Assembly: GCA_051061385.1 (NCBI GenBank)
Contig: JBPFDX010000094.1
Span: 7,252-71,251, forward strand
Direction of reading: 5' to 3'
Source: Methylocystis sp.
GTDB lineage: Bacteria; Pseudomonadota; Alphaproteobacteria; Rhizobiales; Beijerinckiaceae
Length of the DNA: 64,000 nt
The translations under genes were made by a program, and so were the position numbers. Below the pieces are notes generated by a model. The model saw only the letters and a list, made by a program, of their open reading frames with translations. It made no database searches and was not told the origin of the DNA. Shown one piece after another: positions 9,146-26,601 of the stretch (positions within the stretch are counted from its first letter, which is position 1; every line of letters begins with the position of its first letter).

Positions 9146-9158
9146 GTGACTAAGTCGC
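9146..9158. promoter_or_regulatory. Palindromic motif GTGAC-TAA-GTCGC (copy 1 of 4)
   Basis: Identical to the copy upstream of sqr (22105); intergenic, upstream of ORF 9348. Confidence 0.5.
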
Positions 9159-9347
9159 AGACCTTGTCGCGTTTGGCGCACACAATCCCGTCAATCGAGC
9201 CTCGTTGCGTTCTTGCGTCGACGCCAAGCGACGTCGAACGAAAACGCAAGAATCGGCTGTACGCCGTCGCCGTTTGCGGCATTTGCGAAGCATGTCGGTC
9301 TCTCATCCGGCGGCGCCAACAAACTCCTCTGACATCGGAGAAGGGTC

Positions 9348-9770
9348 ATGATTCTCGTGTTGATTTTCGTCGGCGTCGCCTTGGCGACAGTCGGCGTGCT
9401 TTCACTGCTCGACGTGCAGTTCAGAATAAGCAGAGTGACGGCCGTTGCGGCGTTCCTCGGCGGATTGGCGATGGTCGTCGGCGCCGAAGCGGGTTTGATC
9501 GGCTCCAGCTCGTCCTTCTACAAGGCGCAGCAGATTCAGACATCGGCCTGCGAGTTGGATGGTGAATCGGCATATCCGCAAAATCGTCGCCTGGATCCGG
9601 ATCGCCTGATTCGCAAATACATTACGGGCTGCATGGCGCAGGCGGGTTACGCCTGGACGACCGATCACGAGCACTGCAGGGAAGCGCCGCTCGCGACAAA
9701 TCCGCTATGCTATTTGCCCACGAGCCTGTTCGATCGCGCAGTGACGAAAGTTCAGGTCGCCTTCGAATAA
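9348..9770 (+). CDS. Hypothetical membrane protein: N-terminal TM hairpin plus 4-Cys exported domain
   Basis: AAGGG RBS; two hydrophobic helices, then CELD, GCMA, HCRE, LCYL. Confidence 0.75.
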   Translation: MILVLIFVGVALATVGVLSLLDVQFRISRVTAVAAFLGGLAMVVGAEAGLIGSSSSFYKAQQIQTSACELDGESAYPQNRRLDPDRLIRKYITGCMAQAGYAWTTDHEHCREAPLATNPLCYLPTSLFDRAVTKVQVAFE

Positions 9771-9796
9771 GGCGTGAAGCCGCGTTCTGACGAACG

Positions 9797-10354
9797 CTAG
9801 GCGGCGTAGCGCGCGAAGACGAATTGCGTGTCGCCGTAGCGGCGTTCGTCTTCGCGCAGCAGGGGCGGCGGCAAATCGATTTGCGCCTTCGCGTGCTCTT
9901 CGATGACGACGACGGCGCCCGGCGCAAGCCATCCACCTTCTACAAGCGCGGCAAGCGCGGGCGTCGCGAGATCCTTGCCATAGGGCGGATCGAGAAAGGC
10001 GAGCGAAAATTGTTCGCCGGGCGGCGCGGCGCCGAGCTTCGTCGCGTCCCGGCGGAAGACGCGGGTGACGCCGCCCAGTCCAAGCGCTTCGATATTGGCG
10101 CGCAGCAAGGCGCGGGCCTCAGCGCCGTCATCGACAAAAAGCGCGCGCGCGGCGCCGCGCGACAAGGCTTCTAGCCCGAGCGCGCCGGCCCCGGCGAAGA
10201 GATCGATGACATTGGCGCCCGAAGCCGGATCGCCAAAGCGATGCGCGAGAATGTCGAAGACGGATTCGCGCAGGCGCTCGGAGGTTGGCCGGATCGCCTG
10301 CGAGCGCGGCGCGGAAAGCGACCGACCGCGCAGGGCGCCGCCGACAATGCGCAT
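9797..10354 (-). CDS. rsmD: 16S rRNA (guanine966-N2) methyltransferase
   Basis: MRIVGG, IRPTSERLRESVF, DLFAGAGALGLEALSRGA, DPPY. Confidence 0.95.
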   Translation of the reverse strand: MRIVGGALRGRSLSAPRSQAIRPTSERLRESVFDILAHRFGDPASGANVIDLFAGAGALGLEALSRGAARALFVDDGAEARALLRANIEALGLGGVTRVFRRDATKLGAAPPGEQFSLAFLDPPYGKDLATPALAALVEGGWLAPGAVVVIEEHAKAQIDLPPPLLREDERRYGDTQFVFARYAA

Positions 10355-10357
10355 CGC

Positions 10358-12244
10358 TTATGCGCCGCGCGGCTTGCGCGGTCCCTTCGGCGGGCCCTTT
10401 CGCGGTCCCTTGCGCGGCGCGCCTCGGCCGCCAGCCGGACCTTTGCCTGGTCCACTGCGCGCGCCTTTGTGGGGGCCCTTATGCGTTCCGCCGCCTCGAG
10501 GGGGCCGCGCGTCTCCTGCGGCGCGCGGCCGATCGAATTTGCGCGCCCCGGACGGTCGGTCGCCGGGCCAGAATTCGCGCTCGCCGCGCGGCCTGTCGAA
10601 TTCCCGCGGCCGCTCCTGGCGCGTCGCGACCGCGCCGCGCGTATCGCGTCGCGCCTCGTCGCCGTCGCGGCGCGGCGGGCGCCTCTCGAAACGTGCGTCC
10701 TCACGATCGGGCGTTCGATAATTTTTGCGACTGCTCGCGCGGTCGTCCGGCCGTTGCTCGAATCTTTGCGTGTCGCGTGAACGTTCGTCGCGACTCTGCG
10801 GGCCGCGCGCGCCCGGCGCACGTGGGGCCCTCGCGCCGCTCTGTTCGTCGAAGCGCGGCGGCCGACGCGACCCGGTCGCAGCCCGCTCGCCGCGGGGCCT
10901 CTCGTCGCGAAGGAAACGCTCCCCGCGCGGCCTGCCTTCATCCGAGGGATGCTCGGACCGCGGGCTTCTCCGCGGCGCGCCATCCCCGCGCATCGATTCG
11001 AAGCGCCGAGCATTGCGCGATCGATTCTCCTCCTGCGCCGCCTTGCGTTGAACAGGCGTCACGCGCTCGACCGCGACCGCGCGACCCTTGCGGTCGGCGA
11101 CGGCGCCGCGCGTCACGCGCGCGCGCGGACCGGCGTCGCGACGCTCATCTCGCTCCTTGCGCAGCGTCGAGACATGTTTGCGCGCGCGCTTTTCGATGCG
11201 TTCCCGCATTTCCTGTTGTTCGGCTGGCGCCTTCTCGCGCAGCGGCGTCGCGAAATCCGCGCCGGCCAGTTCGGCGAGCGATTTGCCCAATTGTTCGCGC
11301 AGCGTTTTCAGACGAACTTCCTCGACCGCGCCTTCCGCAAGATCGCCGAGCTGGAACGGCCCGTAGGACACGCGGATCAGCCGCGTCACGTCGAGCCCGA
11401 GATGCGCCATGACGCGCTTGATCTCGCGGTTCTTGCCCTCGGTGAGGCTCATCGCGATCCAGGCGTTGGCGCCTTGCTCGCGCTCGAGTCGCGCTTCGAT
11501 CGGCGCATAATTGACGCCCTCGATCGTCACGCCGTTGCGCAGCGAATCGAGCTGCGCCTGATCGATGTCGCCGTGGGCCCGCACGCGGTAGCGCCGGGTC
11601 CAGCCGGTGGCCGGCAGTTCGAGCGTGCGCGCGAGGCCGCCGTCATTGGTGAGCAGCAGCAGCCCTTCGGTGTTGATGTCGAGCCGGCCGACGCTGACGA
11701 GACGCGGCAGATCGGGGTGGCGCTCCTCGAGAAAAGAGAACACCGTGGGGCGGCCTTCTTCGTCGCGCGCGGTGGTGACATAGCCCGCGGGCTTGTGGAA
11801 GAGAAAGAGCCGCGTGCGCTCGCGCGCCTGCATCGGCGCGCCGTCGATCGTGATCTTGTCGCTTTCCTGCACATTGAACGCGGGACTTGTCAGCACGCGG
11901 CCGTTGACGGCGACGCGGCCTTCCGCGATCCAGTGCTCTGCGTCGCGGCGCGAACAGACTCCCGCGCGCGCCATGACCTTGGCGATCCGCTCGCCCTCGA
12001 AGGCCTTTGCTTGCGGGGCGGGCGCAGGCTCGGCGCCGCGCTTCTTTACGGGTCGCTTGGCGCGCGCGCCTTCGGGGCCGTGCGAACCGGCTTTGTCGAA
12101 GCGCGGCTTGTCGAAGCGCGGCTTTGTTGGCCTTGCGTCTTTGCGCCCGACGGCGTTCGGCGCAGGCGCTTCCTTGGCGCGACGTCGCATGGGCCGGTCG
12201 CCGTCTTTTTGCGCCGGTCTTTCGTTGCGGTTCTTTTCTTTCAT
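10358..12244 (-). CDS. rluB: Ribosomal large-subunit pseudouridine synthase (RluB type) with S4 domain and long Arg-rich tails
   Basis: RIAKVMARAGVCSRR S4 domain, VGRLDINTEGLLL catalytic Asp; start at ATG 12244. Confidence 0.9.
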   Translation of the reverse strand: MKEKNRNERPAQKDGDRPMRRRAKEAPAPNAVGRKDARPTKPRFDKPRFDKAGSHGPEGARAKRPVKKRGAEPAPAPQAKAFEGERIAKVMARAGVCSRRDAEHWIAEGRVAVNGRVLTSPAFNVQESDKITIDGAPMQARERTRLFLFHKPAGYVTTARDEEGRPTVFSFLEERHPDLPRLVSVGRLDINTEGLLLLTNDGGLARTLELPATGWTRRYRVRAHGDIDQAQLDSLRNGVTIEGVNYAPIEARLEREQGANAWIAMSLTEGKNREIKRVMAHLGLDVTRLIRVSYGPFQLGDLAEGAVEEVRLKTLREQLGKSLAELAGADFATPLREKAPAEQQEMRERIEKRARKHVSTLRKERDERRDAGPRARVTRGAVADRKGRAVAVERVTPVQRKAAQEENRSRNARRFESMRGDGAPRRSPRSEHPSDEGRPRGERFLRDERPRGERAATGSRRPPRFDEQSGARAPRAPGARGPQSRDERSRDTQRFEQRPDDRASSRKNYRTPDREDARFERRPPRRDGDEARRDTRGAVATRQERPREFDRPRGEREFWPGDRPSGARKFDRPRAAGDARPPRGGGTHKGPHKGARSGPGKGPAGGRGAPRKGPRKGPPKGPRKPRGA

Positions 12245-12303
12245 GGGTTCTGATAGCAGGCGGGCAGCGCGCTTTGAAGCGCCATTGCGCAAGAGAGACG
12301 GGA

Positions 12304-12750
12304 ATGAACGGCAAGGATCCTTTCAGCGCCGCCTTCGACCAGGCGCGCGCCGCTGCGGCGGCGGGCGAAGTTCCGGTCGGCGCGGCGCTTATGCGCAACG
12401 GCGCCGTCATCGCCGCAGCAGGAAACCGAACGCTGCGCGACCGTGATCCGACCGCGCATGCTGAAATGCTCGTCATCCGCGAAGCCTGCGTCGCGATCGG
12501 CTCGGAGCGTCTCGTCGACTGCGATCTCTATGTGACGCTCGAGCCCTGCGCCATGTGCGCGGCCGCGATCAGCTTCGCGCGCTTCCGGCGGCTCTATTAC
12601 GCCGCGAGCGATCCGAAGGGGGGCGCGGTGGAGCACGGGCCGAGGTTCTTCGCGCAGCCGACCTGCCATCACCGGCCGGAAGTCTATGGCGGCATTCGCG
12701 AGAGCGAGGCCGCGGCGCTGCTGCGCGACTTCTTTCAGGCGCGGCGGTGA
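12304..12750 (+). CDS. tadA: tRNA adenosine deaminase / nucleoside deaminase
   Basis: GEVPVGA, HAEM, TLEPCAMC. Confidence 0.9.
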   Translation: MNGKDPFSAAFDQARAAAAAGEVPVGAALMRNGAVIAAAGNRTLRDRDPTAHAEMLVIREACVAIGSERLVDCDLYVTLEPCAMCAAAISFARFRRLYYAASDPKGGAVEHGPRFFAQPTCHHRPEVYGGIRESEAAALLRDFFQARR

Positions 12751-13595
12751 GCTTCCAGCCGTAGCGCGGCCTGCGCCAGCCCGTGACGCAGCGTATCGCG
12801 ACAGGCGTCTCCGGCGGCGAAGATGCGCGAGGCCTTGAAGAGGTCGAGCGCGAGATATTGATGCACCTCGGGCCGGATCAGGACGTCTGGCGGGCGCTCG
12901 GCGATCATGCGCGAGCTGATCGCGTTCATCATGATCTGGCTCGCGACGATCATCGTCTCGAAAGCGGACGGCGGCCCCTTGCCGGTCTCGACGCCGAAAT
13001 TGCCGGAGACGTCGACGGCGATGACGATGTCGGCAAGCCCCCAGAGGTGATCGTAGGGGAGCGGATTGACCAGGCCGCCATCGACGAAATAGCCGTGATC
13101 GCTCTGGGCGGCGCGCACGACGCCAGGGATCGCCATGGACCCCGCGACGGCCGGACGCAAGGGGCCTGTCGCGAAAACCGCCTCGACGCGTCGGCGAAAA
13201 TCCGTGGCGACGACCTGCAGCGGAATGCTCAATTCTTCGAAACGATCAGGCATGCCGTGGGGCCAAAAGGCCTGAAGAAAGCGTTCGCCGTCGAACAGCA
13301 GCGGATGCGCGACGCGGGAAAGAAGCCGCTTGCGTCCGCGCGCCCGCGCATGCAGCAGCCGGCGCGCGAGTCCGATGCGGTTCTTGAGGATGGCTTGCGT
13401 GTGGGCGCGCAGCTCCGCGCCGGAAAAGCCAGCCGCATAGGCGGCGCCGACGATGGCGCCGATCGAGGCGCCGGCGATGGCGACGGGCCGCACCCCCAGA
13501 TCGTCGAGTGCTTCAAGCACGCAAATATGCGCGAGTCCGCGGGCGCCGCCGCCGCCGAGCGCGAGCGCGACTGTTTTCCCGCGATAGAGGCTCAC
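12735..13595 (-). CDS. Patatin-like phospholipase
   Basis: GGGGARG, GASIG nucleophile, DGG motif; GTG start overlaps the upstream stop. Confidence 0.9.
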   Translation of the reverse strand: MSLYRGKTVALALGGGGARGLAHICVLEALDDLGVRPVAIAGASIGAIVGAAYAAGFSGAELRAHTQAILKNRIGLARRLLHARARGRKRLLSRVAHPLLFDGERFLQAFWPHGMPDRFEELSIPLQVVATDFRRRVEAVFATGPLRPAVAGSMAIPGVVRAAQSDHGYFVDGGLVNPLPYDHLWGLADIVIAVDVSGNFGVETGKGPPSAFETMIVASQIMMNAISSRMIAERPPDVLIRPEVHQYLALDLFKASRIFAAGDACRDTLRHGLAQAALRLEAHRRA

Positions 13596-14476
13596 AGGAA
13601 TTTCTCCAAGGCGGCGAGCGTCTCCGCCGGCGCCTCCTCCATTGGATAAAGTCCGGAGTCGACGCGCGCCTCGGCGATGTCGTCGCCCCATTCGCGCCAG
13701 GCGGCGACGAGGGAAGGGCCATTTGCGGGGAATGTCGCATCGCCCGCGACGATCAGCGTCGGCATCGCGAGTTTCCTGCCTTCGGCTTTGTCGGCGGCAA
13801 GCTGCTCGCGGTCGAAGGTCGCCCCGGCGCGAAAATCCTCGCAGAAAGCGTGGATACGCGCCGGATCGTTGAAGGCCTGACGATAGGCGGCGAGCGCGTC
13901 CGCGCAAAATACGTCCAGCGACTTCGCTTTCGTCGCGTTCATCAGCGCATCGTCGAGAAAGCCGACGGGATCGAGGCCGATCAGCTCTTCCGGCTTGGGC
14001 GCGTCAGCAGCGAGGAAGCGCGCGCGTCCGACGCGCTGCAGATCGCCATCGCCGAAATCATCGTCAACCGGCGCGATATTGATGAGCGCAATCTTGTCGA
14101 GCCGGCCGGGCTGGTCGAGCGCGAGGCGCTGGCCGACGCGCGCGCCCCTGTCGTGCCCGACGAGCGCGAAGCGCGCATGACCGAGCGATTCCATAACCAA
14201 CACGACGTCGGCGGCCATCTCCCGCTTCGTGTAATGCTCGCCCTTTTCGCTCGCGGGGACGGACGACCATCCGTAGCCGCGAAGATCCATTGCGACGACC
14301 GTGAACCGTTTCGCGAGCGTCGACGCGATCTTATGCCAGGCGACATGGGTTTCGCCGAACCCGTGTAACAGGATCACCGGCGAGCCCTCGCCACGGACGC
14401 GGGCGAATATTTTTCCAGCCGGCGCGTCGATCCAATGCGAAGCAAAACCCGGGAACAGATGCGCGTGATCGGACAT
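13592..14476 (-). CDS. Alpha/beta hydrolase of the fluoroacetate/haloacetate dehalogenase family with substituted catalytic residues
   Basis: LLHGF, DLRGYG, GHDRGARV retained; SGLY in place of SGHF. Confidence 0.85.
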   Translation of the reverse strand: MSDHAHLFPGFASHWIDAPAGKIFARVRGEGSPVILLHGFGETHVAWHKIASTLAKRFTVVAMDLRGYGWSSVPASEKGEHYTKREMAADVVLVMESLGHARFALVGHDRGARVGQRLALDQPGRLDKIALINIAPVDDDFGDGDLQRVGRARFLAADAPKPEELIGLDPVGFLDDALMNATKAKSLDVFCADALAAYRQAFNDPARIHAFCEDFRAGATFDREQLAADKAEGRKLAMPTLIVAGDATFPANGPSLVAAWREWGDDIAEARVDSGLYPMEEAPAETLAALEKFL

Positions 14477-14573
14477 TTTTTAAAACCATCTCCTACGGCG
14501 TGCGAGAGCGTTCGCGTGAATGTTATACAGTATCAGCTCCATCGCTCTCGAAATATATATCGCGGACCGTCAA

Positions 14574-14586
14574 GCGACTATGTCAC
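14574..14586. promoter_or_regulatory. Palindromic motif (reverse orientation) GTGAC-ATA-GTCGC (copy 2 of 4)
   Basis: Plus strand reads GCGACTATGTCAC, in the divergent promoter region between the hydrolase and the carbonic anhydrase. Confidence 0.55.
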
Positions 14587-14689
14587 GAAGATCGCGCTGT
14601 TCCTCTGCTTGAAAAGCAAGCTGAAGCGCTTCAATGTTGAGGCAGGTCAAAAAAATTTAGAAGCAACGAACGCAACAAGGGAGAGAGAG

Positions 14690-15274
14690 ATGGCTAGCCA
14701 GATCGTCAACGAAGTTGTCTCCGCAAACAACGCTTACGCCGCCGATTTCGGTAAGAAGAGCGAACTCGCGCTGCCGCCGGCGCGCGGGTTCGCAATCCTG
14801 ACCTGCATGGACGCGCGTCTTGATCCGGCAAAATACGCCGGCCTTTCGGAAGGCGACGCGCATGTGATCCGCAACGCCGGCGGTCGCGCGTCGGACGACG
14901 CGATTCGCTCGCTGGTGATTTCTCACAAGCTGCTCGGCACCAAGGAGTGGTTCGTCATTCACCACACCAATTGCGGCATGGAGCTCTTCTGCGACGAGAT
15001 CATGAGCGACCTGCTGGACGACAGCCTCGCCACGGCGAGTTTCGACGGCAAGAACTGGTCGAACCCGCAACATGGCGGCGGCTGCGCGGCCGGCCACTTC
15101 ATCAAACGGCACACGATCAAGAATCAGGAGGAGAGCGTCGCGCAGGACGTCGCGCGCATCCGTTCGCATCCGCTGGTGCCGAAGAACATCCCGATCTACG
15201 GCTACGTCTATGATGTGAAGACCGGCAAGATCAACGAGGTCTCGGAAGCGACCAAGGTCGGCAAGGCGGCGTAG
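14690..15274 (+). CDS. Beta-class carbonic anhydrase, clade D (COS/CS2-hydrolase-like)
   Basis: TCMDARL, HVIRNAGG and HHTNCG Zn ligands; start ATG 14690 after GGGAG. Confidence 0.9.
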   Translation: MASQIVNEVVSANNAYAADFGKKSELALPPARGFAILTCMDARLDPAKYAGLSEGDAHVIRNAGGRASDDAIRSLVISHKLLGTKEWFVIHHTNCGMELFCDEIMSDLLDDSLATASFDGKNWSNPQHGGGCAAGHFIKRHTIKNQEESVAQDVARIRSHPLVPKNIPIYGYVYDVKTGKINEVSEATKVGKAA

Positions 15275-15319
15275 CGCTTCGCGACGCGAATGCGCGGTTC
15301 GTGATCAGCCGCGTTCAGG

Positions 15320-15344
15320 ATCCCCGACGCGCAGCGTCGGGGAT
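15320..15344. terminator. GC-rich hairpin between convergent genes
   Basis: ATCCCCGACGC-GCA-GCGTCGGGGAT, 11-bp stem. Confidence 0.55.
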
Positions 15345-15377
15345 GAGAGAGGTCTCTAAAACGCTCGGCGTGGCTTG

Positions 15378-15719
15378 TCACTCCACCGCGCCGCCGCGGG
15401 CGCGCCAGCCGCCGGTGCCCGGCGCATAATGGCGAATGTCGTTTCGGCCGACGTTTTGCGCCTGCGCAAGCGCCTTGGCCGATCGCCCGCCCGCCTGGCA
15501 GATCAGAACCACGTCGCCCTTCGGAAGCTTCGTCGGATCGAAGCTCGAGAGCGGCATGTTCTTGGCGCCCGGCACATGGCCGGCGCCATATTCGTGCGGC
15601 TCGCGCACGTCAACGACGGCGCAGGACTTGTCCGCCACGACGCGGCAGAAATCGTCATGCTCGATAGTCGGCGCCGAGCCGCCGCCGGCGAGTTTCGACA
15701 GGAGAGAGCCCAGAGTCAT
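15378..15719 (-). CDS. Single-domain rhodanese (sulfurtransferase)
   Basis: VVDVREPHEY, GHVPGA, active-site loop CQAGGRS, GGW. Confidence 0.9.
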   Translation of the reverse strand: MTLGSLLSKLAGGGSAPTIEHDDFCRVVADKSCAVVDVREPHEYGAGHVPGAKNMPLSSFDPTKLPKGDVVLICQAGGRSAKALAQAQNVGRNDIRHYAPGTGGWRARGGAVE

Positions 15720-15735
15720 TTTCGTTCCTTTCGTC

Positions 15736-16089
15736 TCAGGCTTGCTTTTCGGCGTCGAACTGGGAGAAGGCGGCGAGCGCATGGCTCGCATACATCACCG
15801 ACGGTCCGGCGCCCATGTAGATGCTCATGGCGAGCGTCTCCATCACCTCCTCGCGCGTGGCGCCGCGCTGCGACGCGGCTTTGGCGTGAAAGGCGATGCA
15901 ATCGTCGCAGCGCACTGCGACGCTGACCGCAAGCGCGATCAGTTCCTTTGTCTTGGCGTCGAGCGCGCCTTGCGCGCCCGCCGAGATCGCCATCGCCGAA
16001 AAGGCTTTCATCACCTCGGGCGAGCCGACCCGCAATTCGCGGATGTCGGCGGAAAGCTTCTTGGCGAGGGCCGCCCAGTCTTCGGTCAT
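15736..16089 (-). CDS. Carboxymuconolactone decarboxylase/AhpD-family protein
   Basis: GALDAKTKELIALAV, RCDDCIAFH (CxxC); ATGA overlap with the RND permease stop. Confidence 0.88.
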   Translation of the reverse strand: MTEDWAALAKKLSADIRELRVGSPEVMKAFSAMAISAGAQGALDAKTKELIALAVSVAVRCDDCIAFHAKAASQRGATREEVMETLAMSIYMGAGPSVMYASHALAAFSQFDAEKQA

Positions 16090-19000
16090 GAGGCGCTCCT
16101 TGGCGTTTCGTCGTCGCGCAGAACGACATAGATCGCGGGGATGACGAGCAGGGTGAGCGCCGTCGACGAGGCGAGGCCAAAGACGAGCGAAATGGCGAGA
16201 CCCTGAAAGATCGGATCGGTGAGAATAAAGGCCGCGCCGATGATCGCCGCGGCGGCGGTGAGAAAGATGGGCTTGAAGCGCACCGCGCCCGCCTCGATCA
16301 GCGCGGCGCGCAGCGTCATGCCGCGCGCCCGTAAATGCCGGATGAAGTCGACGAGCAGGATGGAATTGCGCACGACGATTCCGGCGAGCGCGATAAAGCC
16401 GATCATCGATGTCGCGGTGAAGGCGGCGTTGAACAAGATGTGGCCGATGACGATGCCGACGAGCGTCAGCGGCACCGGCGCCAGGATGACCAGCGGCAGT
16501 TTGAACGAGCCGAACTGCGCGACGACGAGAAGGTAGATGCCGAGCAGCGCCACCATGAAGGCTGCGCCCATGTCGCGGAAGGTGACATAGGTCACTTCCC
16601 ACTCGCCGTCCCAGAGCAGCGTCGGCTGCGAATCGTCGAGCGGCTGGCCGTGATATTTGATCGTCGGCGGTCCCGAAGGTCCCCAGTCCATCTTGTCGAT
16701 CGCGTCTTCGACCGCGAGCATGCCATAGATCGGCGCTTCCAAACGGCCGGCGACCTCGGCGCTGACCATTTCGGCGAAGCGGCCATTGTGACGGAAGATC
16801 GGGTAGGAGCCGAGTTCGCGCGTCGCCTTGACGACGTCGCCGAGTTCGACATTGGCGCCCTGGCGCTCGGTGCCGCCGGCGGGCAGCGGCGTTGACAGGA
16901 TTCCTTCGCCGGGCGTCATCGCCGAGCGCGGCAGCGCCACCGTTATGTCGACAGGCTTGGCGCCGCCGCCCTTTTGCGAAAAGCCGATCTTGACGCCGCC
17001 GACCAGGGCGCCGATCGTGTCGTAGACGGCGCGCTCCTCGACGCCGTGATACTCGAGCGCCTCCTGATCGATCTCGAAGCGCAGGCGCTCGGCGCGCTGA
17101 CCGTAGCTGTCGTCGGTGTCGACGACGAAATCGACGGCGTCGAAAGCCTTGCGCACCTTCGCTGCGAGATCGCGCCGCGATTGCGCGTCCGGACCATAGA
17201 CCTCGGCGAGCAGCGTCGACAGCACGGGCGGGCCCGGCGGCACTTCGACGACCTTGATCGCAGTGTGTTCGGGCGCCGGCAGTCCCTCGAGCTTCTTGCG
17301 AATATCGAGCGCAATCGCATGGCTCGCGCGGCTGCGCTCGCCTTTCGGCTGGAGATTGATCGCCAGATCGCCCATCTCGGGCGCGTTGCGCATGTAATAG
17401 TGCCGCACGAGGCCGTTGAAGTTGAAGGGCGCGGCGGCGCCCGCATAGGACTGAATGGAGGTCAGTTCCGGAATGTCCTTGAGGCGTTCCGCCGCCGCCG
17501 TCAGCACCCGGTCCGTTTCTTCGAGCGAAGCGCCGCGCGGCAGATCGACGACGACGGCGATCTCCGACTTGTTGTCGAAGGGCAGCAGTTTCACGCGCAC
17601 GGTCTTCGTTGCGAAGAGCGTCATTGAGAGAAGCGTCGCGAGGCCGACCGCCGTAAGAAACCACTGCGAGCGCTTGCGGCCTTTCAGCAACGGCGTCGCC
17701 ACGCGCACGTAGAAATTGCCCATGGCGCCGCGTTCATGCGCATGATCGACGCCGTCGCCGCGCTCCTGCGCGAAACGCTTGCCGGCGACCTTGAGCAGGA
17801 GCCAAGGCGTAATCGTCATGGCGACGAAGAAGGAGAAGATCATCGCAAGCGAAGCGTTCGCGGGAATGGGGCTCATATAGGGCCCCATCAGACCTGAGAC
17901 GAACATCATTGGCAGCAGGGCGGCGACGATCGTGAGCGTCGCGACGATCGTCGGATTGCCGACTTCCGCCACCGCCTCGACGGCCGTGTCGATCAGGCTG
18001 CGCGAGCCGCGCATATGCCAGTGGCGCACGATGTTCTCGACGACGACGATGGCGTCGTCGACGAGAATGCCGATCGAGAAGATAAGCGCGAAAAGGCTGA
18101 CGCGATTGATCGTATAGCCCATCAGCCAGGAGGCGAAGAGCGTGAGCAGAATCGTCGTCGGGATGATGACGAAGACGACGACGCCCTCGCGCCAGCCGAC
18201 CATCACGACGATGAGCGCCACGATCGAGACGGTCGCCAGCGCGAGATGGAACAGCAGCTCATTGGCCTTCTCGGTCGCCGTCTCGCCATAGTCGCGGGTC
18301 ACCGCGATCTCGATGTCGTCAGGAACGATGCGGCCTTTGACGGCCTCGAGCCGATGCATGATCTCATCGGCGACGACGACGGCGTTAGCGCCCTTGCGCT
18401 TGGCGATCGCGATGCTGACGGCGGGGCGCTTGTCGAGGCCGCCGGCGGCGTTGCGCGTCATGGTCCAGCTGCGCCGGTCGGGCTCGGCGGCGCCGACGCG
18501 CACCTCGGCCACGTCCTTCACATAGACCGGGCGGCCGTCTCTTGTGGTCAGCAGCAGCTGGCCGACGTCGGGGACGCCCTGCAGCGTCTGGCCGGCGACG
18601 ACAGGCACGGCGCGATTGCCCTCGCGGAACGCGCCGACGAGAAAGGAACGGTTGGCGTTGGTCAGCTTGTCGATCAGCTGATTGAGCGTCACGCCATATT
18701 GCGACAGGCGTTCGGGATCGGGCTCGACGCGGATCTGATTAGGGCTGCCGCCGACGATGTAGCTTAAGCCGACGTCATTGACCTTGGTGAGGTCGTGCTG
18801 CAATTCCTCGGCGACCTGATAGAGGCCATTGTCGGTCCAGCGATCGGCGCGCTCGGGCTTCGCCGAAAGCGTCAGCACGACGATCGCGACGTCGTCTATG
18901 CCGCGGCCAACGATCAGCGGCTCGGGAATGCCCTTCGGCAGATCGCTGATGTTGGCGCGCATCTTGTCGTGGATGCGCAGGACGGCGTTGTCCTGCGACG

Positions 19001-20321: not shown

Positions 20322-20352
20322 ATGCAGAAAACGTAAATTAGCAATAGCGAAT
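20322..20352. promoter_or_regulatory. Putative SqrR/BigR tandem operator A
   Basis: ATGC-N8-TAAATTA-N8-GAAT, 13 bp upstream of the RND adaptor start. Confidence 0.65.
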
Positions 20353-20413
20353 TTAAGATCAGGAAAGGAAAGGACAGGGCGGCGCGGCGCCGCCCGACTT
20401 TCCTTCAGTGGCG

Positions 20414-20650: not shown

Positions 20651-20681
20651 TTCAACCTCCCTTGGCAATTCATCCGTTGCC

Positions 20682-20712
20682 GGACGATTCCATTAAATTA
20701 GATGAACGTAAT
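20682..20712. promoter_or_regulatory. Putative SqrR/BigR operator B (one good half)
   Basis: GGAC-N8-TAAATTA-N8-TAAT upstream of the HiPIP gene. Confidence 0.45.
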
Positions 20713-20774
20713 ATACCGTGTTCGCGCCGGCATGAATGCGACATAACGCTCTTTCACGCCTGCGATACGCTCGC

Positions 20775-20803
20775 TTGACAATTATATTCAATAATCATAA
20801 TTT
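20775..20803 (+). promoter_or_regulatory. Sigma70 promoter of the sqrR operon
   Basis: TTGACA-N17-TAATTT. Confidence 0.6.
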
Positions 20804-20816
20804 AGAAAACATGAAT
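20786..20816. promoter_or_regulatory. Putative SqrR/BigR tandem operator C (autoregulatory)
   Basis: ATTC-N8-TAATTTA-N8-GAAT covering the -10 box and start codon. Confidence 0.7.
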
Positions 20817-21170
20817 GTAAAAGCGATTGAGCTCGCGCCGAAAGCTGCGGAGGCCGAGAGCTTTCTAAAGGCTCTGGCCAACCGTCATCGGCTGATGGTG
20901 CTGTGCCAGCTCCACGCGGGCGAGCTGTCGGTGACAAAGCTGCAGGAGGCGATCGGGCTGAGCCAATCGTCGCTGTCGCAGCATCTCGCGCGGCTGCGCG
21001 AGGACAAGCTCGTCAAGACCCGCCGCGAATCCCAGACGATCTACTATTCCCTGGCCGACGGTAACGTCTCACGAATCATCGGACTGCTTTACGAGATGTT
21101 TTGCGCCGAGGAGTGCGGCAAGCCGGCCAAACCGCGCGCGCGCGCAAAATCAAAGGAACTCACGTCATGA
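20811..21170 (+). CDS. sqrR: ArsR-family persulfide-sensing repressor (SqrR/BigR type)
   Basis: LKALANRHRLMVLC (helix-2 Cys), SQSSLSQHLARLR, LYEMFC (helix-5 Cys). Confidence 0.85.
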   Translation: MNVKAIELAPKAAEAESFLKALANRHRLMVLCQLHAGELSVTKLQEAIGLSQSSLSQHLARLREDKLVKTRRESQTIYYSLADGNVSRIIGLLYEMFCAEECGKPAKPRARAKSKELTS

Positions 21171-21367
21171 GCATTGATCGCATCGTTATGGCCTTCGCAG
21201 GCGCCATGATCCTTTTGAGCCTGCTCCTGGCGCAGTTGTTCAGCCCATGGTGGCTCTTGCTTACGGCTTTCGTCGGCGTCAATCTGCTGCAGGCGGCGTT
21301 TACCGGACTCTGCCCGTTAGCGATGGCGCTGAAACGGTTCGGCGCCAGATCAGGCGCCGCTTTCTAG
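21167..21367 (+). CDS. DUF2892 (YgaP-like) membrane protein
   Basis: FVGVNLLQAAFTGLCP motif; ATGA overlap with sqrR. Confidence 0.88.
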   Translation: MSIDRIVMAFAGAMILLSLLLAQLFSPWWLLLTAFVGVNLLQAAFTGLCPLAMALKRFGARSGAAF

Positions 21368-21443
21368 GATTCATCAGCGTGTGCGCACAGGGCGCAGCGC
21401 GCACTTGGCTGGGCCTTTGATCGTTAGCGACGAAGAGCAGACG

Positions 21444-22112
21444 ATGCCTTTCGATTGGGTCGACGAAACGCCGTCCTTGCGCAGCCTCGACGCCGCGACG
21501 AAGACCCTTCTGCGCGACTCCGCCGTTCGCAAGCAAATCCCGCGCGGCGCCGTGCTGTTTCGGCCGGGCGACCAATGCGCGCAGTTCCCGCTGATCGTCT
21601 CGGGCACTGTGCGCGTGCAGCGGGTGACCGAGTCGGGCAGGGAAATCGTGCTCTATCGAGTCGGCGAGAATGAAACCTGCATTCTGACCACGGCGTCGCT
21701 GCTTTCGGACGACGCCTACGCCGCTGAAGGCGTCGCCGAGACTGACGTGATCGCCTATGTCGTCCCCGCCGATCGTTTCAACGCGCTGATGAATGCTTCC
21801 GAAAGCTTTCGCGCGCTGGTGTTCAACGGCTACAGCAAGCGTCTCGCGACCTTGATGTCGCGCATCGAGGAAATCGTCTGCACGCGCATCAATGTTCGTT
21901 TGGCGGAACGCCTTCTCGCGCTGCGCGACGCCGGCGACAAGATCGCCGCCACGCAGCAGGCGCTCGCCGCGGATCTCGGCACGGCGCGCGAAGTCGTCGG
22001 CCGCACGCTGAAAGCGTTCGAGCGTTCTGGCTGGGTAAAATTGTCGCGCGGCGGCGCCGAGATCGTCAATCCCGCGGCGTTGCGTTCGCTGTGCGCCGCA
22101 CAGCGTGACTAA
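21444..22112 (+). CDS. Crp/Fnr-family transcriptional regulator
   Basis: cNMP-like domain (GREIVLYRV, GETCILT) and HTH (TQQALAADLGTAREVVGRTL). Confidence 0.92.
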   Translation: MPFDWVDETPSLRSLDAATKTLLRDSAVRKQIPRGAVLFRPGDQCAQFPLIVSGTVRVQRVTESGREIVLYRVGENETCILTTASLLSDDAYAAEGVAETDVIAYVVPADRFNALMNASESFRALVFNGYSKRLATLMSRIEEIVCTRINVRLAERLLALRDAGDKIAATQQALAADLGTAREVVGRTLKAFERSGWVKLSRGGAEIVNPAALRSLCAAQRD

Positions 22113-22117
22113 GTCGC
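22105..22117. promoter_or_regulatory. Palindromic motif GTGAC-TAA-GTCGC (copy 3 of 4)
   Basis: Centred on the Crp/Fnr stop codon, 90 nt upstream of sqr. Confidence 0.6.
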
Positions 22118-22207
22118 GGACATGCGCGCGACAAGCGTGCATGTCGTGACAAAATGAGCGCAACCGTCAGCGCAAACTTTGTGCGCGCAAGCGCATGGGA
22201 GGATTGA

Positions 22208-23491
22208 ATGGCTCACATCGTTATCATGGGCGCCGGGATCGGCGGCGTCGCCGCCGCGATCGAAGTTCGCGAGGGACTCTCGAAGCAACATCAGGTCACG
22301 GTCGTCTCTGACCTTGAGAATTTTCAGTTCACGCCGTCCAATCCGTGGCTCGCGGTGCAATGGCGCAAGCCCGAGGAGCTCAAGGTTCCGCTCGCGCCGG
22401 TGTTCAAGAAGAAGAACATCGGCTTCATTCCGGTCGGCGCGAAGCGCGTTATGCCCGAAGAGAACCGCCTCGAGCTCGCGAATGGCGAGAGCGTCGCCTA
22501 CGACTATCTCGTCATCGCCACCGGACCGAAGCTCGCGTTCGAAGAATTGCCCGGACTTGGACCTCACGGCGGGCACACGCATTCGATCTGCACGCTGCAG
22601 CATGCCGAGATCGCGTCGAAGGCCTATGAGGAGTTCTGCAAGAATCCCGGCCCGATCATCATCGGCGCGGCGCCCGGCGTCTCATGCTTTGGTCCGGCGT
22701 ATGAATACGCCATGATTCTTTCCACCGATCTGCGTCGCCGCGGCATCCGCGACAAGGTGCCGATGACCTACATCACGTCCGAGCCCTATATTGGGCATCT
22801 TGGTTTGGGCGGCGTCGGCGACACCAAGGGTATGCTCGAATCGGCGTTCCGCGACCGCGACATCAAATGGATCGTCAACGCCAAGACGACCGCGATCGAA
22901 CCCGGGCTGCTCAAATGCGCCGAGCTCGACGACCAGGGGCAGGTCAAGAAGGAGCACGAAGTGCCCTTCAAATTCGCCATGGTGATGCCCGCCTTCAAAG
23001 GCGTCGATGCGCTGATGGGCGTCGAGGGGCTGGTCAATCCTCGCGGCTTCGTCATCATCGACAAGAATCAGCGCAATCCGAAATATCCGAATGTGTTCGG
23101 CGTCGGCGTCTGCGTCGCGATCCCGCCCGTCGAGGCGACGCCGGTGCCCACCGGCACGCCGAAGACCGGCTATATGATCGAGTCCATGGTGACCGCCACG
23201 GCGCATAACATCGCCGCGCTGATCGCCGGGCGTGAAGCCAAGGAAGAAGGCACGTGGAACGCGGTTTGCTTGGCGGATTTCGGCGACAAGGGCGTCGCCT
23301 TCGTCGCCAAACCGCAGATTCCGCCGCGTAACGTCAATTGGTCAAGCGAAGGGCGTTGGGTGCATCTCGCGAAGATCGCCTATGAGAAATACTTCCTTCG
23401 CAAGGTTCGTAAGGGGCAGAGCGAGCCTGTATATGAGCGGTACATCATGAAGCTGCTCGGCATCGAACGACTGCGCCGCGCTCTGTCATAA
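22208..23491 (+). CDS. sqr: Sulfide:quinone oxidoreductase, type I (SqrA-like)
   Basis: GAGIGG FAD motif, FTPSNPW, SICT, SCFGPAYE, CVAIPP...PKTGYMIESM, AVCLADFG (three conserved Cys). Confidence 0.93.
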   Translation: MAHIVIMGAGIGGVAAAIEVREGLSKQHQVTVVSDLENFQFTPSNPWLAVQWRKPEELKVPLAPVFKKKNIGFIPVGAKRVMPEENRLELANGESVAYDYLVIATGPKLAFEELPGLGPHGGHTHSICTLQHAEIASKAYEEFCKNPGPIIIGAAPGVSCFGPAYEYAMILSTDLRRRGIRDKVPMTYITSEPYIGHLGLGGVGDTKGMLESAFRDRDIKWIVNAKTTAIEPGLLKCAELDDQGQVKKEHEVPFKFAMVMPAFKGVDALMGVEGLVNPRGFVIIDKNQRNPKYPNVFGVGVCVAIPPVEATPVPTGTPKTGYMIESMVTATAHNIAALIAGREAKEEGTWNAVCLADFGDKGVAFVAKPQIPPRNVNWSSEGRWVHLAKIAYEKYFLRKVRKGQSEPVYERYIMKLLGIERLRRALS

Positions 23492-23528
23492 CAGGGCCCC
23501 GCCGCCATGCAATGCTGGAGGAGAGTCG

Positions 23529-23687
23529 ATGCGGACTAGGCCGTTAAGGCGCGAGATCCTCCTCGCGCTGGCGTTTAAATTGCTGGCGCTCATCGCGCTC
23601 TACGTCCTGTTTTTCGGCCCCGCGCATCGTATCAAGGTGACGCCGGCGCAGATGGCGGAAGCGCTTTCCGCCGCCGCGCCGCGCTGA
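23529..23687 (+). CDS. cydP: Cytochrome bd small subunit CydP-like, 52 aa (not in ORF track)
   Basis: MRTRPLRREILLALAFKLLALIALYVLFFGP; GGAGGAG RBS; directly precedes cydA. Confidence 0.75.
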   Translation: MRTRPLRREILLALAFKLLALIALYVLFFGPAHRIKVTPAQMAEALSAAAPR

Positions 23688-23720
23688 CGCCCGTCAGCTG
23701 ACTTCTGTCAGGAGCCCAAT

Positions 23721-25295
23721 ATGTTCGAACTCGACGTCGTCACCCTCTCGCGCCTGCAATTTGCGCTGACGGCGCTGTATCACTTCCTCTTCGTGCCGCT
23801 GACGCTGGGTCTCGCGCTGCTGCTCGCGATCATGGAAAGCGTCTATGTGATGACGGGTCGAACCGTCTGGCGCGATGCGACGCAGTTCTGGGGCACGCTG
23901 TTTGGCATCAACTTCGCCATGGGCGTCGCCACCGGCGTCACGATGGAGTTCCAGTTCGGCACCAACTGGGCCTATTACTCGCATTACGTCGGCGACATCT
24001 TCGGCGCGCCGCTCGCCATCGAGGGCCTGATGGCCTTCTTCCTCGAGGCGACCTTCGTCGGCCTGTTCTTCTTTGGCTGGAAACGACTGAGCAAGGTGCA
24101 GCATCTCGCTGTCACCTGGCTCGTCGCGCTCGGCGCCAATTTCTCGGCGCTGTGGATTCTCGTCGCGAACGCCTGGATGCAGAATCCGGTCGGCGCGGCG
24201 TTCAATCCACAGACGATGCGCATGGAGCTGACGTCCTTCACCGAGGTGCTGTTCAATCCCGTGGCGCAATCGAAATTCGTGCACACGGTGAGCGCCGGCT
24301 ATGTCACGGGCGCGATGTTCGTCATGTCGATTGGCGCCTATTTCCTTTTGAACCGCCGCCACGTCGACATCGCCCGCCGCTCGCTGACGGTGGCGGCGAG
24401 CTTCGGGCTCGCCTCAGCGCTTTCGGTCGTCGTGCTCGGCGATGAGAGCGGCTATACGGCGGGCGAGAACCAGAAGATGAAGATCGCCGCGATCGAGGCC
24501 ATGTGGGAGACGGAGCCGCCGCCCGCGTCTTTCACGCTCTTTGGTTTCCCCGATCTCAAGAGCGAAACGACGAAAGACGAGATCAGAATACCGTGGATCC
24601 TGGGGCTGATCGCCACACGCTCGCTCGATAAGCCCGTCGAAGGCGTGAAGGCGCTCGTCCAACGTTCCGAGGAGCGTATCCGCAACGGCATGGCCGGCTA
24701 TCAGTGGCTCGCGAAGGAAGGCGGCCATCCGAACGCCGTCGTTCCGCCGGAACTCGAGGCGTCGATGCGCGACGTCGGCCATTCGCTGCTCGTCAAGCGC
24801 ATCCGGCCGGACATCGAGAACGCCACCGACGCGCAGATCCACGAAGCGGCGATGTCGACGATCCCCGACGTGCCGGTGTTGTTCTGGTCGTTCCGAATCA
24901 TGGTGGCGCTGGGCTTCTATTTCATCGCGCTCTTCGCCATCGCGTTTTATCTGTCGAGCCGGCGACGCTGCGGCAGGCCCTGGTTCCTGCGCATGGTCAT
25001 GTATAGCCTGCCCTTGCCCTGGGTCGCCGCCGAACTCGGTTGGATCGTCGCTGAATACGGCCGGCAGCCGTGGATCATCGACGGAACGATGCCGACATTC
25101 CTCGGCGTCTCGAACATCCCTGCATCGAATGTCGCGGCGAGCCTCGCGGCCTTCGTGCTGTTCTACAGCGCGCTCGCCATTATCGATGTCGCGCTCATCG
25201 TCAAATATGTGCGCATCGGACCGCGTTCGGAGGCTGAGCCCCAGACCACCGGCGCGCCGGTGCTCCCCGCGCCTGCGCCGGCGCAAACGCGATAG
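23721..25295 (+). CDS. cydA: Cytochrome bd ubiquinol oxidase subunit I
   Basis: ALYHFLFVP heme His, FQFGTNW, QKMKIAAIEAMW Q-loop, EYGRQPW. Confidence 0.97.
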   Translation: MFELDVVTLSRLQFALTALYHFLFVPLTLGLALLLAIMESVYVMTGRTVWRDATQFWGTLFGINFAMGVATGVTMEFQFGTNWAYYSHYVGDIFGAPLAIEGLMAFFLEATFVGLFFFGWKRLSKVQHLAVTWLVALGANFSALWILVANAWMQNPVGAAFNPQTMRMELTSFTEVLFNPVAQSKFVHTVSAGYVTGAMFVMSIGAYFLLNRRHVDIARRSLTVAASFGLASALSVVVLGDESGYTAGENQKMKIAAIEAMWETEPPPASFTLFGFPDLKSETTKDEIRIPWILGLIATRSLDKPVEGVKALVQRSEERIRNGMAGYQWLAKEGGHPNAVVPPELEASMRDVGHSLLVKRIRPDIENATDAQIHEAAMSTIPDVPVLFWSFRIMVALGFYFIALFAIAFYLSSRRRCGRPWFLRMVMYSLPLPWVAAELGWIVAEYGRQPWIIDGTMPTFLGVSNIPASNVAASLAAFVLFYSALAIIDVALIVKYVRIGPRSEAEPQTTGAPVLPAPAPAQTR

Positions 25296-25309
25296 GAAAG
25301 GCGACAGCG

Positions 25310-26449
25310 ATGTTCGACTATATGACGCTTCGCCTCATCTGGTGGGCGCTGCTGGGCGTTCTGCTCGTAGGCTTCGCCGTCCTCGACGGTTTCGACATCG
25401 GCGTCGCCATGCTGCATCCCTTCGTCGCCCGCAACGACACGCAGCGGCGCGTGACGCTCAATACGATCGGCCCCGTGTGGGAAGGCAATCAGGTCTGGTT
25501 CATCCTCGGCGGCGGCGCCGCCTTCGCGGCCTGGCCGCCGCTTTACGCGGTGTCCTTCTCCGGCTTCTACCTCGCGATGCTGCTGGTGCTGATCGGCCTC
25601 ATTTTGCGGCCGGTGGCGATCACCTTCCGCGACAAAAGACCGGAGAGCGGCTGGCGCGAGACCTGGGACTGGCTCTTCTTCGCTTCGGGCGCCGTGCCCG
25701 CGCTGATCTTCGGCGTCGCCTTCGGCAATCTTCTGCAGGGCGTTCCCTTTCATTTCGATCAGCAGCTGCGCGCCACTTATGAGGGCGGCCTCCTCGGCCT
25801 GCTCAACCCCTTCGCCTTGCTCTGCGGCCTCGTCAGCGTGACGATGCTCGCGATGCAGGGCGCCGCCTGGCTGAGCGTGAAGAGCGAGGGCGAGGTCGCC
25901 GTCCGAGCCCGGCGATATGGCGCCGTCGCGGCGATCCTGCTGGTTCTGCTCATCTCCGGCGCCGGAATTTGGACGATGCTCGGGGTGGAGGGATTCCGGA
26001 TAGACGGCGTCATCGAACATGCCGGCCCGTCCAATCCGCTCGCCAAGACGGTGACGCGAGAAACTGGCGCCTGGTTCGATAATTACCGGGCCTACCCCTG
26101 GATGATCGCGGCCCCGGCCGCCGCCTACATCGGCGCTCTGATCGCGGCGCTGGCCCTCGCGCTTTCGGCGAGAAGGATCGCGCTTCTCGCCAGCAGCCTT
26201 TCGGTTGCGGGGGTTGCGACCATGGCGGGCTTCAGCATGTTCCCGTTCCTGCTGCCGTCGTCGACTCACCCGAGCCAGAGCCTGACGGTCTGGGACGCTT
26301 CGTCGAGCAAAGCGACGCTCTCGCTGATGCTCGTCGCGGTGATCGTCTTTCTGCCGATCGTTCTTACCTACACGAGCTGGGTCTACTACGTGCTGCGCGG
26401 CGCCGTCAGCGAGGCGGCGATCCGTCGCGGCGACGACTATTATTATTGA
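25310..26449 (+). CDS. cydB: Cytochrome bd ubiquinol oxidase subunit II
   Basis: LDGFDIG, IGPVWEGNQVW, SLTVWDASSS. Confidence 0.97.
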   Translation: MFDYMTLRLIWWALLGVLLVGFAVLDGFDIGVAMLHPFVARNDTQRRVTLNTIGPVWEGNQVWFILGGGAAFAAWPPLYAVSFSGFYLAMLLVLIGLILRPVAITFRDKRPESGWRETWDWLFFASGAVPALIFGVAFGNLLQGVPFHFDQQLRATYEGGLLGLLNPFALLCGLVSVTMLAMQGAAWLSVKSEGEVAVRARRYGAVAAILLVLLISGAGIWTMLGVEGFRIDGVIEHAGPSNPLAKTVTRETGAWFDNYRAYPWMIAAPAAAYIGALIAALALALSARRIALLASSLSVAGVATMAGFSMFPFLLPSSTHPSQSLTVWDASSSKATLSLMLVAVIVFLPIVLTYTSWVYYVLRGAVSEAAIRRGDDYYY

Positions 26450-26466
26450 GCGGGAGAACACGAAGC

Positions 26467-26574
26467 ATGTGGTATTTTTCCTGGATATTGGGTCTGGGGC
26501 TCGCCTGCGCCTTCGCCATTCTCAACGCCATGTGGCTTGAGCTAGATGACGACGACGAGCGGCGGAAGAAATAG
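26467..26574 (+). CDS. cydX: Cytochrome bd small subunit CydX, 35 aa (not in ORF track)
   Basis: MWYFSWILGLGLACAFAILNAMWLE. Confidence 0.92.
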   Translation: MWYFSWILGLGLACAFAILNAMWLELDDDDERRKK

Positions 26575-26588
26575 GCGGCTCCCGGAGC

Positions 26589-26601
26589 GAGACATAGTCG
26601 C
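26589..26601. promoter_or_regulatory. Palindromic motif GAGAC-ATA-GTCGC (copy 4 of 4)
   Basis: Intergenic, 61 nt upstream of the second DUF2892 gene. Confidence 0.5.

Follow-up and report, generated by a model that had tools for sequence, protein, structure and literature searches.

Proteins of the Crp/Fnr superfamily couple diverse signals to one fold: FLP of Lactobacillus casei and CprK are thiol/disulfide-switched members, and CooA uses Cys75 as a haem ligand. Dedicated sensors of reactive sulfur species (RSS) have been assigned to the CsoR, ArsR and Fis families in reviews of 2022 and August 2026 (PMC9774590, PMC13467558), the later of which adds the MarR-family factor SscR (PMC13467558). 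SqrR, BigR and YgaV (ArsR), CstR (CsoR) and FisR (a sigma-54 activator) are found beside genes for sulfide:quinone oxidoreductase (sqr), persulfide dioxygenase, sulfurtransferase and YeeE/YedE, and have a conserved cysteine pair and a small sulfide-detoxification regulon. Here we describe a locus of Methylocystis sp. that shares these neighbours, the cysteine pair and, by prediction, such a regulon, but whose regulator has a fold and DNA-binding mode wholly unlike theirs, being of the Crp/Fnr and not the ArsR winged-helix type. The locus lies in a stretch of 64,000 nucleotides (assembly GCA_051061385.1, contig JBPFDX010000094.1 (C94), positions 7252–71251; hereafter the window), in which a 13-bp palindrome occurs four times (sites 1 to 4; Table 1). 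These palindromes are very probably binding sites of the neighbouring 222-amino-acid Crp/Fnr-type protein, encoded by a gene that we call crp.

A sequence-only reading of the window had reported the palindromes at 9146, 14574–14586 (minus strand), 22105 and 26589, all of them non-coding or at a stop codon. A pattern scan returned exactly these four, and the gene map agrees, with site 3 spanning the TAA of crp. The four exact matches to GWGACWWAGTCGC compare with 0.01 expected from 100 dinucleotide-preserving shuffles of the window, none of which (0/100) reached four. Across the 3.49-Mb assembly (108 contigs, 63% G+C) the pattern has five matches; four are those of the window, within 17.5 kb and all intergenic, and the fifth lies inside a 339-codon open reading frame (ORF). 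A position weight matrix trained on 37 genus-level sites ranked the window sites 1, 2, 3 and 8 genome-wide, and all other matches of at least 17.6 bits lay within long ORFs, where GAC-AWT-GTC is ordinary coding sequence. With five copies in the genome and the other high scorers coding, the element is neither a product of chance nor a repetitive extragenic palindromic (REP) element; a dispersed intergenic repeat, which the sequence-only reading had named among the outcomes that would overturn it, would need tens to hundreds of copies.

In the window the motif takes the form G-N-GAC-WWW-GTC-N-C, an imperfect palindrome with arms GTGAC and GCGAC, and the consensus for the regulator family as a whole is T-GTGAC-NNN-GTCAC-A. 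The half-site spacing is GTGA-N5-TCAC, with the dyad running through the central base pair, at each of the four window sites and at 41 sites of other genera. Because GAC-AWT-GTC is so common in coding sequence, a search for GNGACWWWGTCNC over 41 genomes was too noisy, and footprinting based on loci was used in its place.

Orthologues of the regulator occur in 23 of 24 congeneric genomes; in their 20-kb contexts genes were mapped by tblastn and the motif was then marked. In as many as 14 Methylocystis species, each site stands out as a conserved island ahead of the corresponding orthologous genes. At site 1, GTGACTAAGTCGCAGACC is identical in all six species with the order mutS, site, mem140 (the last encoding a 140-amino-acid membrane protein), and is absent from four species without mem140 at that place; in more distant Methylocystis, mem140 directly follows the regulator and its site, ahead of cydAB. 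Site 2 is an island of identity, TCAAGCGACTWTGTCACGAAGA, in an otherwise variable spacer in 14 species, and a variant, GTGAC-TAA-GTCCG, precedes the gene for a beta-class carbonic anhydrase (beta-CA) in three more distant ones. Of 13 related loci, 11 carry site 4 in the corresponding position. At site 3, AGCGTGACTAAGTCGC is invariant in 13 species, whereas the rest of the crp–sqr spacer diverges; in orthologues of 59–65% identity the site is degenerate yet present (GGGACTAAGTCGC, GCGACTTAGTCGC, GGGACTAAATCCC and GAGACTAAGTCGT). The left arm of site 3 encodes Arg-Asp-stop; its right arm lies outside the coding sequence. In genome G007, which has no target gene after the regulator, the site has decayed to GGGATTAGAACG: the right arm is gone, although the sequence spells the same Arg-Asp-stop as GGGATTAG, so coding constraint alone cannot explain site 3.

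Beyond the window there is a fifth class of site. Positions 8661–8673 of contig C83 of this genome (locus L178) read GGGACTATGTCAC, 76 bp upstream of the gene for a quinoprotein-dehydrogenase-associated SoxYZ-like carrier (TIGR04557, 271 bits), and sites of the GTGACTTTGTCTC type precede the orthologous gene in 10 of 16 Methylocystis species, mostly with a −10-like hexamer at +29 from the dyad. Just upstream of the C83 site, this genome carries a low-G+C (36%) insertion with a membrane ORF of unknown kind. A separate arrangement is seen at locus L138 of G007 (G007:C28:150868-153880), where the regulator has no adjoining site and GTGACTTTGTCTC sits elsewhere, midway between a persulfide dioxygenase/sulfurtransferase-SQR operon and a divergent peroxiredoxin–ArsR pair; by this placement the canonical target of the family would be retained at a distance from the regulator.

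Past the crp stop, the right arm of site 3 is able to take part in a strong RNA hairpin, which speaks for an element that is no protein operator but an RNA hairpin or terminator, or else a chance or REP-like repeat. Such an origin is scarcely credible. The hairpin is confined to site 3 and to the closest clade, the palindrome itself, with its 5 bp of stem around a loop of 3 nt, is too weak for termination, there are five copies per genome, and the sites stand ahead of unlinked genes with a phased −10-like element (below). Copy number and conservation across genera effectively refute the REP and terminator readings.

Two regulator genes lie side by side at this locus, and we used breaks in synteny to tell them apart. 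The second encodes an ArsR/BigR-like protein; regulators of the ArsR type are the classical regulators of sqr, the gene lies 270 bp upstream of crp, and its best NCBIfam match is BigR. That this protein binds the palindrome is nonetheless very unlikely, and we reject it as the operator's reader. In four loci (L045–L047 and L049) arsR and sqr adjoin without a palindrome, which stays at the crp stop 2 kb off and is followed there by mem140 and, in L045 and L047, also by cydAB. Two further loci (L048 and L050) combine crp, the site and mem140 but are free of arsR over 20 kb, and arsR is rare in the loci of other genera. AT-rich TAAATTA/TAATTTA boxes, at window positions 20334, 20694, 20798 and 29185, form a separate candidate operator of the ArsR type: they cluster around arsR and the divergent RND operon in 13 species, and the box at 29185 follows the cytochrome c' gene. 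A generic repeat finder did not recover this operator, whose boxes emerged from manual inspection and k-mer analysis. In five related species a box, CTAATTTAG, lies between the palindrome and sqr, so that both control layers would meet in the same sqr promoter. Comparative genomics thus supports the proposal that the motif is the site of the adjacent Crp/Fnr protein, in that the motif follows crp and not arsR. The companion proposal, a second control layer that links genes outside the obvious sulfur cluster to sulfide metabolism, is borne out by the separate ArsR-type boxes, the shared sqr promoters and the fifth site at the SoxYZ-like gene.

The association extends well beyond the genus. A profile of the regulator retrieved 80 loci from named genomes, 74 of them of other genera (among them Rhodobacteraceae, Paracoccus, Azospirillum, Thalassospira, Hyphomicrobiaceae, Bradyrhizobium denitrificans and a few non-alphaproteobacterial metagenome-assembled genomes), with regulators 42–54% identical. 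GTGAY-N3-RTCAC occurs between −10 and +300 bp of the regulator stop in 41 of these 74 loci, at a density of 1.79 per kb near the stop; over the other 1.14 Mb of these loci the density is 0.0106 per kb, so that the enrichment is about 170-fold. Where the target operon is divergent, the site precedes the regulator. Perfect palindromes number about nine in each of three complete genomes of other genera (0–2 in a reversed control), and among ten sampled copies only two, beside the regulator, were intergenic. The genes downstream are those of sulfide oxidation. A co-oriented YgaP-like_TM (DUF2892) gene, the commonest first gene after the site across the family, is present in 31 of 64 loci with the window query and 19 of 64 with a Roseobacter query; a metallo-beta-lactamase persulfide dioxygenase (the dioxygenase part of Blh) follows in 31 of 64, a TIGR01244 sulfurtransferase fused to an SQR-like flavoprotein in 26 of 64, and YeeE/YedE in 19 of 64. 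With the palindrome adjoining this regulator family and ArsR genes rare, the motif travels with this Crp/Fnr family, the ancestral regulon being a sulfide-oxidation operon. The subfamily has more than 550 genomic matches and 1362 proteins at E ≤ 1e-20.

These data also bear on the idea that another factor encoded elsewhere, either a Crp/Fnr paralogue or an unrelated dimer, binds the palindrome and that the adjacent gene is merely co-regulated. The genome offers several other Crp/Fnr-like candidates (10 at a first look), and genome G013, that of a close relative, keeps a well-formed site at the SoxYZ-like gene, with TAAAGT at +29 from the dyad, while having no member of the regulator family (best identity 28%). 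G013 is likewise without sqr and beta-CA; either the island has been lost or was left unassembled, which the joint absence makes probable, or another factor can use the site. We consider such a factor improbable given the local enrichment beside this one family across many genera, the lack of any other consistently present DNA-binding gene, and a half-site that suits the invariant recognition residues of the family.

The window protein belongs to the Crp/Fnr superfamily, having a cNMP-binding-like beta-roll (PF00027, 3.7e-16) and a helix–turn–helix of the HTH_Crp_2 type (PF13545, 1.3e-13). It falls under the cut-off of every named NCBIfam subfamily, and public sources name it generically. Its AlphaFold2 model (predicted local distance difference test score 89.6) has the Crp/Fnr fold, with a helix at 80–88 and a continuous helix at 120–160, and the top Foldseek matches are all Crp/Fnr proteins, the best TM-scores going to Thermus thermophilus CAP, HcpR and DNR. 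The best match both by sequence (6.3e-23) and by Foldseek (2.5e-17, 27% identity) is PDB 3dv8, a structural-genomics Crp/Fnr protein of Eubacterium rectale, but this entry has no known function, ligand or operator and its context is not sulfide oxidation.

Like Escherichia coli CRP, the protein has a beta-roll, a long C-helix and a winged helix–turn–helix, and its predicted dyad would likewise fall near −41. The residues with which CRP contacts bases, R180, E181 and R185 (mature numbering; R181, E182 and R186 in the precursor), are invariant across the family alignment and correspond to R182, E183 and R187 here (R-E-x-x-G/S-R). The recognition helix reads TAREVVGR in Methylocystis and TAREV[VI]SR elsewhere, which is the CRP-type motif in a scheme that distinguishes R-E-x-x-x-R (CRP type) from E-x-x-S-R (FNR type) (PMC3590769). 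These residues fit GNGA half-sites (G, variable, G, A) and back the earlier CRP-like reading of the half-site, in which the core resembles a CRP box shortened by one base. In CRP itself the box is GTGA-N6-TCAC, the match to the CRP family NF008732 is 44.1 bits against an equivalog cut-off of 266, and the regulon predicted here is small and local, not global. The cAMP contacts of CRP are absent: E72, R82, S83, T127 and S128 are replaced by T82, Y92, A93, L137 and M138.

FNR, FixK and Dnr/NnrR, which are class II activators, resemble the window protein in fold, in a palindrome about 41 bp upstream of the transcription start site (TSS; a prediction for this locus) and in respiratory targets, here cytochrome bd and cytochrome c'. 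They differ from it in other respects: the window protein has no N-terminal cysteine cluster like that of FNR, an O2-sensing [4Fe-4S] protein, and no cysteine in its first 44 residues, it scores 17.8 bits against the FNR model NF008365 (cut-off 228) and 17.7 bits against FixK (cut-off 300), and the FNR half-site TTGAT (in TTGAT-N4-ATCAA) contrasts with GTGAC at a spacing 1 bp shorter. The sites thus depart from the xTGA-N6-TCAx geometry of the superfamily, a departure that concerns the operator and not the protein fold. RedB of Rhodobacter capsulatus belongs to another subgroup and has an AT-rich non-palindromic motif; the paper describing it points out that many Crp/Fnr subgroups are still uncharacterised. 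The motif string was not found in the open-access literature, and open-access full text on Crp/Fnr proteins with sulfide, persulfide or sqr yielded no Crp/Fnr-type sulfide sensor.

Cysteines of the family point to a possible signal. Cys79, at the start of the phosphate-binding-cassette helix and presumably within one residue of where Cys75 of CooA would align, is present in 110 of 110 sequences. Position 85, in the cassette helix, is cysteine in 78 of the 110, 77 of them with Phe146, whereas the Methylocystis clade (29 sequences) has Ser, Ala or Gly at 85 together with Cys146, at the position of the CRP hinge residue F136. Cys85 and Cys146 never occur together (0/110), three sequences have neither, and 107 have a second cysteine at one place or the other. 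This pattern is suggestive of a move of the partner cysteine, in the Methylocystis lineage, out of the phosphate-binding cassette and into the hinge. The loss of the cAMP contacts, together with Cys79 and a second cysteine, suggests a thiol-based sensor of sulfide or persulfide, and the family shows two traits of RSS sensors, namely a conserved cysteine pair and sulfide-oxidation genes downstream in most of the 64 loci. We infer the effector from neighbouring genes and cysteines, and haem, NO or oxidants remain alternatives. FLP, CprK and CooA differ in cysteine positions, operators and regulons, and the family here has no conserved haem-binding histidine; no CooA or FLP structure was among the PDB sequence matches at E ≤ 0.001.

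Sigma-70 consensus scans of the four intergenic regions gave no credible promoter, and an anchored alignment of the family was used instead. When the 41 sites from other genera were aligned on the dyad and offsets of 8 to 49 were scanned, TAnnnT was found to start exactly at +29 in 13 of 41, against at most two at any other offset, and 'TA' was present at +29 or +30 in 27 of 41. The flank after the right arm reads C-n-G-A-C/A. Taking TAnnnT as −12 to −7 places the dyad at about −41 and GAC at −33 to −31, as part of a −35 element with a 17-bp spacer in which the TT of the hexamer is missing. This is most likely the geometry of a class II activator. In the window, site 4 follows the pattern well, with TAGGCT, TAGCCT, TAGTTT, TAGCTT or TAGTCT at +29 in 8 of 12 species and a start codon about 27 nt past the implied TSS. 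At site 1 the hexamers at +29 are CACAAT or CACACT; among the SoxYZ sites, TAATCT, TATGCT or TAAAGT stands there in five, and the hexamers of another three are weaker. Predicted TSSs at about 9193 (site 1), 22152 (site 3) and 26636 (site 4) would put the dyads at −41 ± 1. For site 2, a TTGAAA that is conserved 22 nt away would imply a position near −64 of the beta-CA promoter.

The same geometry could serve a repressor, the thiol form occluding the −35 region and sulfane sulfur releasing the protein by bridging the cysteines, as for CstR, SqrR and BigR. The promoters retain a recognisable −10 element and part of a −35 element and might fire unaided, and dithiol RSS sensors have been described mostly as repressors (PMC9774590, PMC13467558). 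We nevertheless hold repression to be unlikely: a −35 hexamer without TT weighs against it, and the fold of the family is built to gain DNA binding when a ligand is taken up. Class II activation by proteins of the CRP/FNR family, moreover, has as its hallmark a dyad near −41.

On balance, the reading that we favour, and hold with somewhat better than even confidence, is that the palindrome is the operator of the adjacent Crp/Fnr protein acting as a class II activator. A dimer would read two CRP-type GNGA half-sites, set 1 bp nearer to each other than those of CRP or FNR boxes, through its Arg-Glu-x-x-Gly/Ser-Arg recognition helices and, from about −41 of sigma-70-type promoters, would switch on five units: mem140; beta-CA and the hydrolase; sqr-cydPABX; the operon of DUF2892, the HMA-DsbD-cupredoxin-LysM fusion and cytochrome c'; and, outside the window, the SoxYZ-like gene. 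A cysteine pair in and near the former cAMP pocket (Cys79/Cys85 in most of the family and Cys79/Cys146 in Methylocystis) would sense the signal, which is likely sulfide or sulfane sulfur.

Several observations weigh against this activator model, in addition to the persistence of the SoxYZ site in G013. The strict palindrome is absent from 33 of the 74 loci of other genera, and to our knowledge no characterised Crp/Fnr member has an odd-spaced (N5) operator, which may be a point of interest or a warning. The −41 placement is predicted from a −10-like consensus; the hexamer at site 3 is poor (CATGTC), and site 2 has no fit at +29 in either direction. The site overlaps the predicted −35 element, where C-n-GAC is conserved, and an operator so placed would suit repression equally; the known dithiol persulfide sensors are all repressors except FisR. 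The switch from Cys85 to Cys146 is a single lineage event and so statistically weak.

Table 1. Features of the window around the four palindromes (window coordinates).
Feature	Position	Strand	Remarks
mutS	6360-9107		Upstream neighbour of site 1
Site 1, GTGACTAAGTCGC	9146..9158	+	39 bp past mutS stop, 190 bp ahead of mem140
Predicted −10 hexamer CACAAT	9181..9186	+	29 bp from site 1 dyad; offset from family-wide +29 peak
mem140, 140-aa membrane protein	9348..9770	+	Two N-terminal transmembrane helices, 4-Cys domain
rsmD-like, rluB-like and patatin genes	Between mem140 and alpha/beta-hydrolase	-	
Alpha/beta-hydrolase	13592..14476 (start 14476)	-	Divergent from beta-CA; Pfam Abhydrolase_1, 1.2e-27
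Site 2, GTGACATAGTCGC read on minus strand	14574..14586	-	Hydrolase/beta-CA divergent region
Beta-class carbonic anhydrase (beta-CA)	14690..15274	+	Pfam Pro_CA
RND pump (AcrB and membrane-fusion protein)	Between beta-CA and ArsR/BigR-like gene	-	Divergent partner of arsR
ArsR/BigR-like regulator	20736..21170	+	NCBIfam BigR 92 bits, under cut-off of 155
DUF2892 (YgaP-like_TM) gene after arsR	About 21167-21367		
Crp/Fnr-family regulator, 222 aa (crp)	21444..22112	+	Proposed binder; PF00027, PF13545
Site 3, GTGACTAAGTCGC	22105..22117	+	Includes regulator TAA stop; 91 bp ahead of sqr
sqr-cydP-cydA-cydB-cydX	22208..26574	+	Pfam Pyr_redox_2, Cyt_bd_oxida_I, Cyt_bd_oxida_II
cydP (small ORF)	23529-23687		Translated
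cydX (small ORF)	26467-26574		Translated
Site 4, GAGACATAGTCGC	26589..26601	+	15 bp past cydX stop, 62 bp ahead of DUF2892
Predicted −10 hexamer TAGGCT	26624..26629	+	29 bp from site 4 dyad
YgaP-like_TM (DUF2892)	26663-26848	+	Pfam; first gene after site 4
HMA-DsbD_2-cupredoxin-LysM fusion	26937-28553	+	Pfam
Cytochrome c'	28618-29166	+	Pfam; site 4 target operon spans 26663..29166

Other features of the window concern the target genes more than the sites. The genes from sqr to cydX are separated by gaps of 15–38 bp and form a probable operon downstream of site 3. The start of beta-CA was corrected to the ATG given in Table 1, which is preceded by GGGAGAGAGAG; its divergent neighbour, the alpha/beta-hydrolase gene, may be a target of site 2. 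A second conserved palindrome, TGTTATACAGTATCA (14521–14535), with the consensus TGTTAYA-NN-GTAACA and present in 14 of 14 aligned species, separates that site from the hydrolase start and is probably the operator of a regulator other than this Crp/Fnr protein. A plus-strand ORF at 15436–16131 (231 codons) looks spurious, being Arg-rich and without a family match, and was dropped from the regulon; it resembles a shadow of minus-strand genes. The DUF2892 gene that follows arsR is apparently translationally coupled to it through an ATGA overlap, as in E. coli ygaV–ygaP. Right after the regulator stop, a G+C-rich inverted repeat, GGACATGCGC ... GTGCATGTC, occupies 22113–22151; it folds as RNA at a ΔG of −33.4 kcal/mol (z −3.75), has no U-tract and is found in the closest clade only. 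The mem140 protein has no Pfam or NCBIfam match. If its TSS is near 9193, the mem140 leader would be about 155 nt long; the region 9159–9347 has several inverted repeats, as well as blocks that six species share, and the leader may be a structured 5' untranslated region. One public metatranscriptome covered 90% of the stretch in fragmented, undirected contigs that probably include DNA carry-over, and gave no TSS or operon information.

As far as sequence allows, the first reading of this locus is supported, and it extends to a widespread and uncharacterised Crp/Fnr subfamily that is linked to sulfide and has an unusual operator. It is quite possible, if somewhat less likely than not, that the window protein is the first example of a further structural class of dedicated sensor for sulfide or sulfane sulfur, widespread in Alphaproteobacteria, in which a cysteine pair on the Crp/Fnr fold replaces cAMP as the switch. 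Such a protein would activate promoters for sulfide oxidation and sulfide-insensitive respiration from a −41 operator with half-sites 1 bp closer than those of any characterised member, and in Methylocystis its regulon would have expanded from a single operon to five promoters.

Both haem-copper oxidases and methane oxidation are poisoned by sulfide. For methanotrophs and other Alphaproteobacteria, the sensors known to turn on SQR, persulfide dioxygenase and cytochrome bd, which is insensitive to sulfide, are confined to the ArsR, CsoR and Fis types. If our reading is correct, a large unannotated Crp/Fnr subfamily would acquire a function, together with an operator and a mechanism of sensing that can be tested, regulons could be predicted from the motif in hundreds of genomes, and the CRP/FNR field would gain a natural dimer that reads half-sites one base pair closer together. 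It would also explain how sulfide stress in Methylocystis comes to involve genes beyond the obvious sulfur cluster, namely those for a beta-class carbonic anhydrase, a 4-Cys membrane protein, a SoxYZ-like carrier, cytochrome c' and a fusion protein that handles metals.

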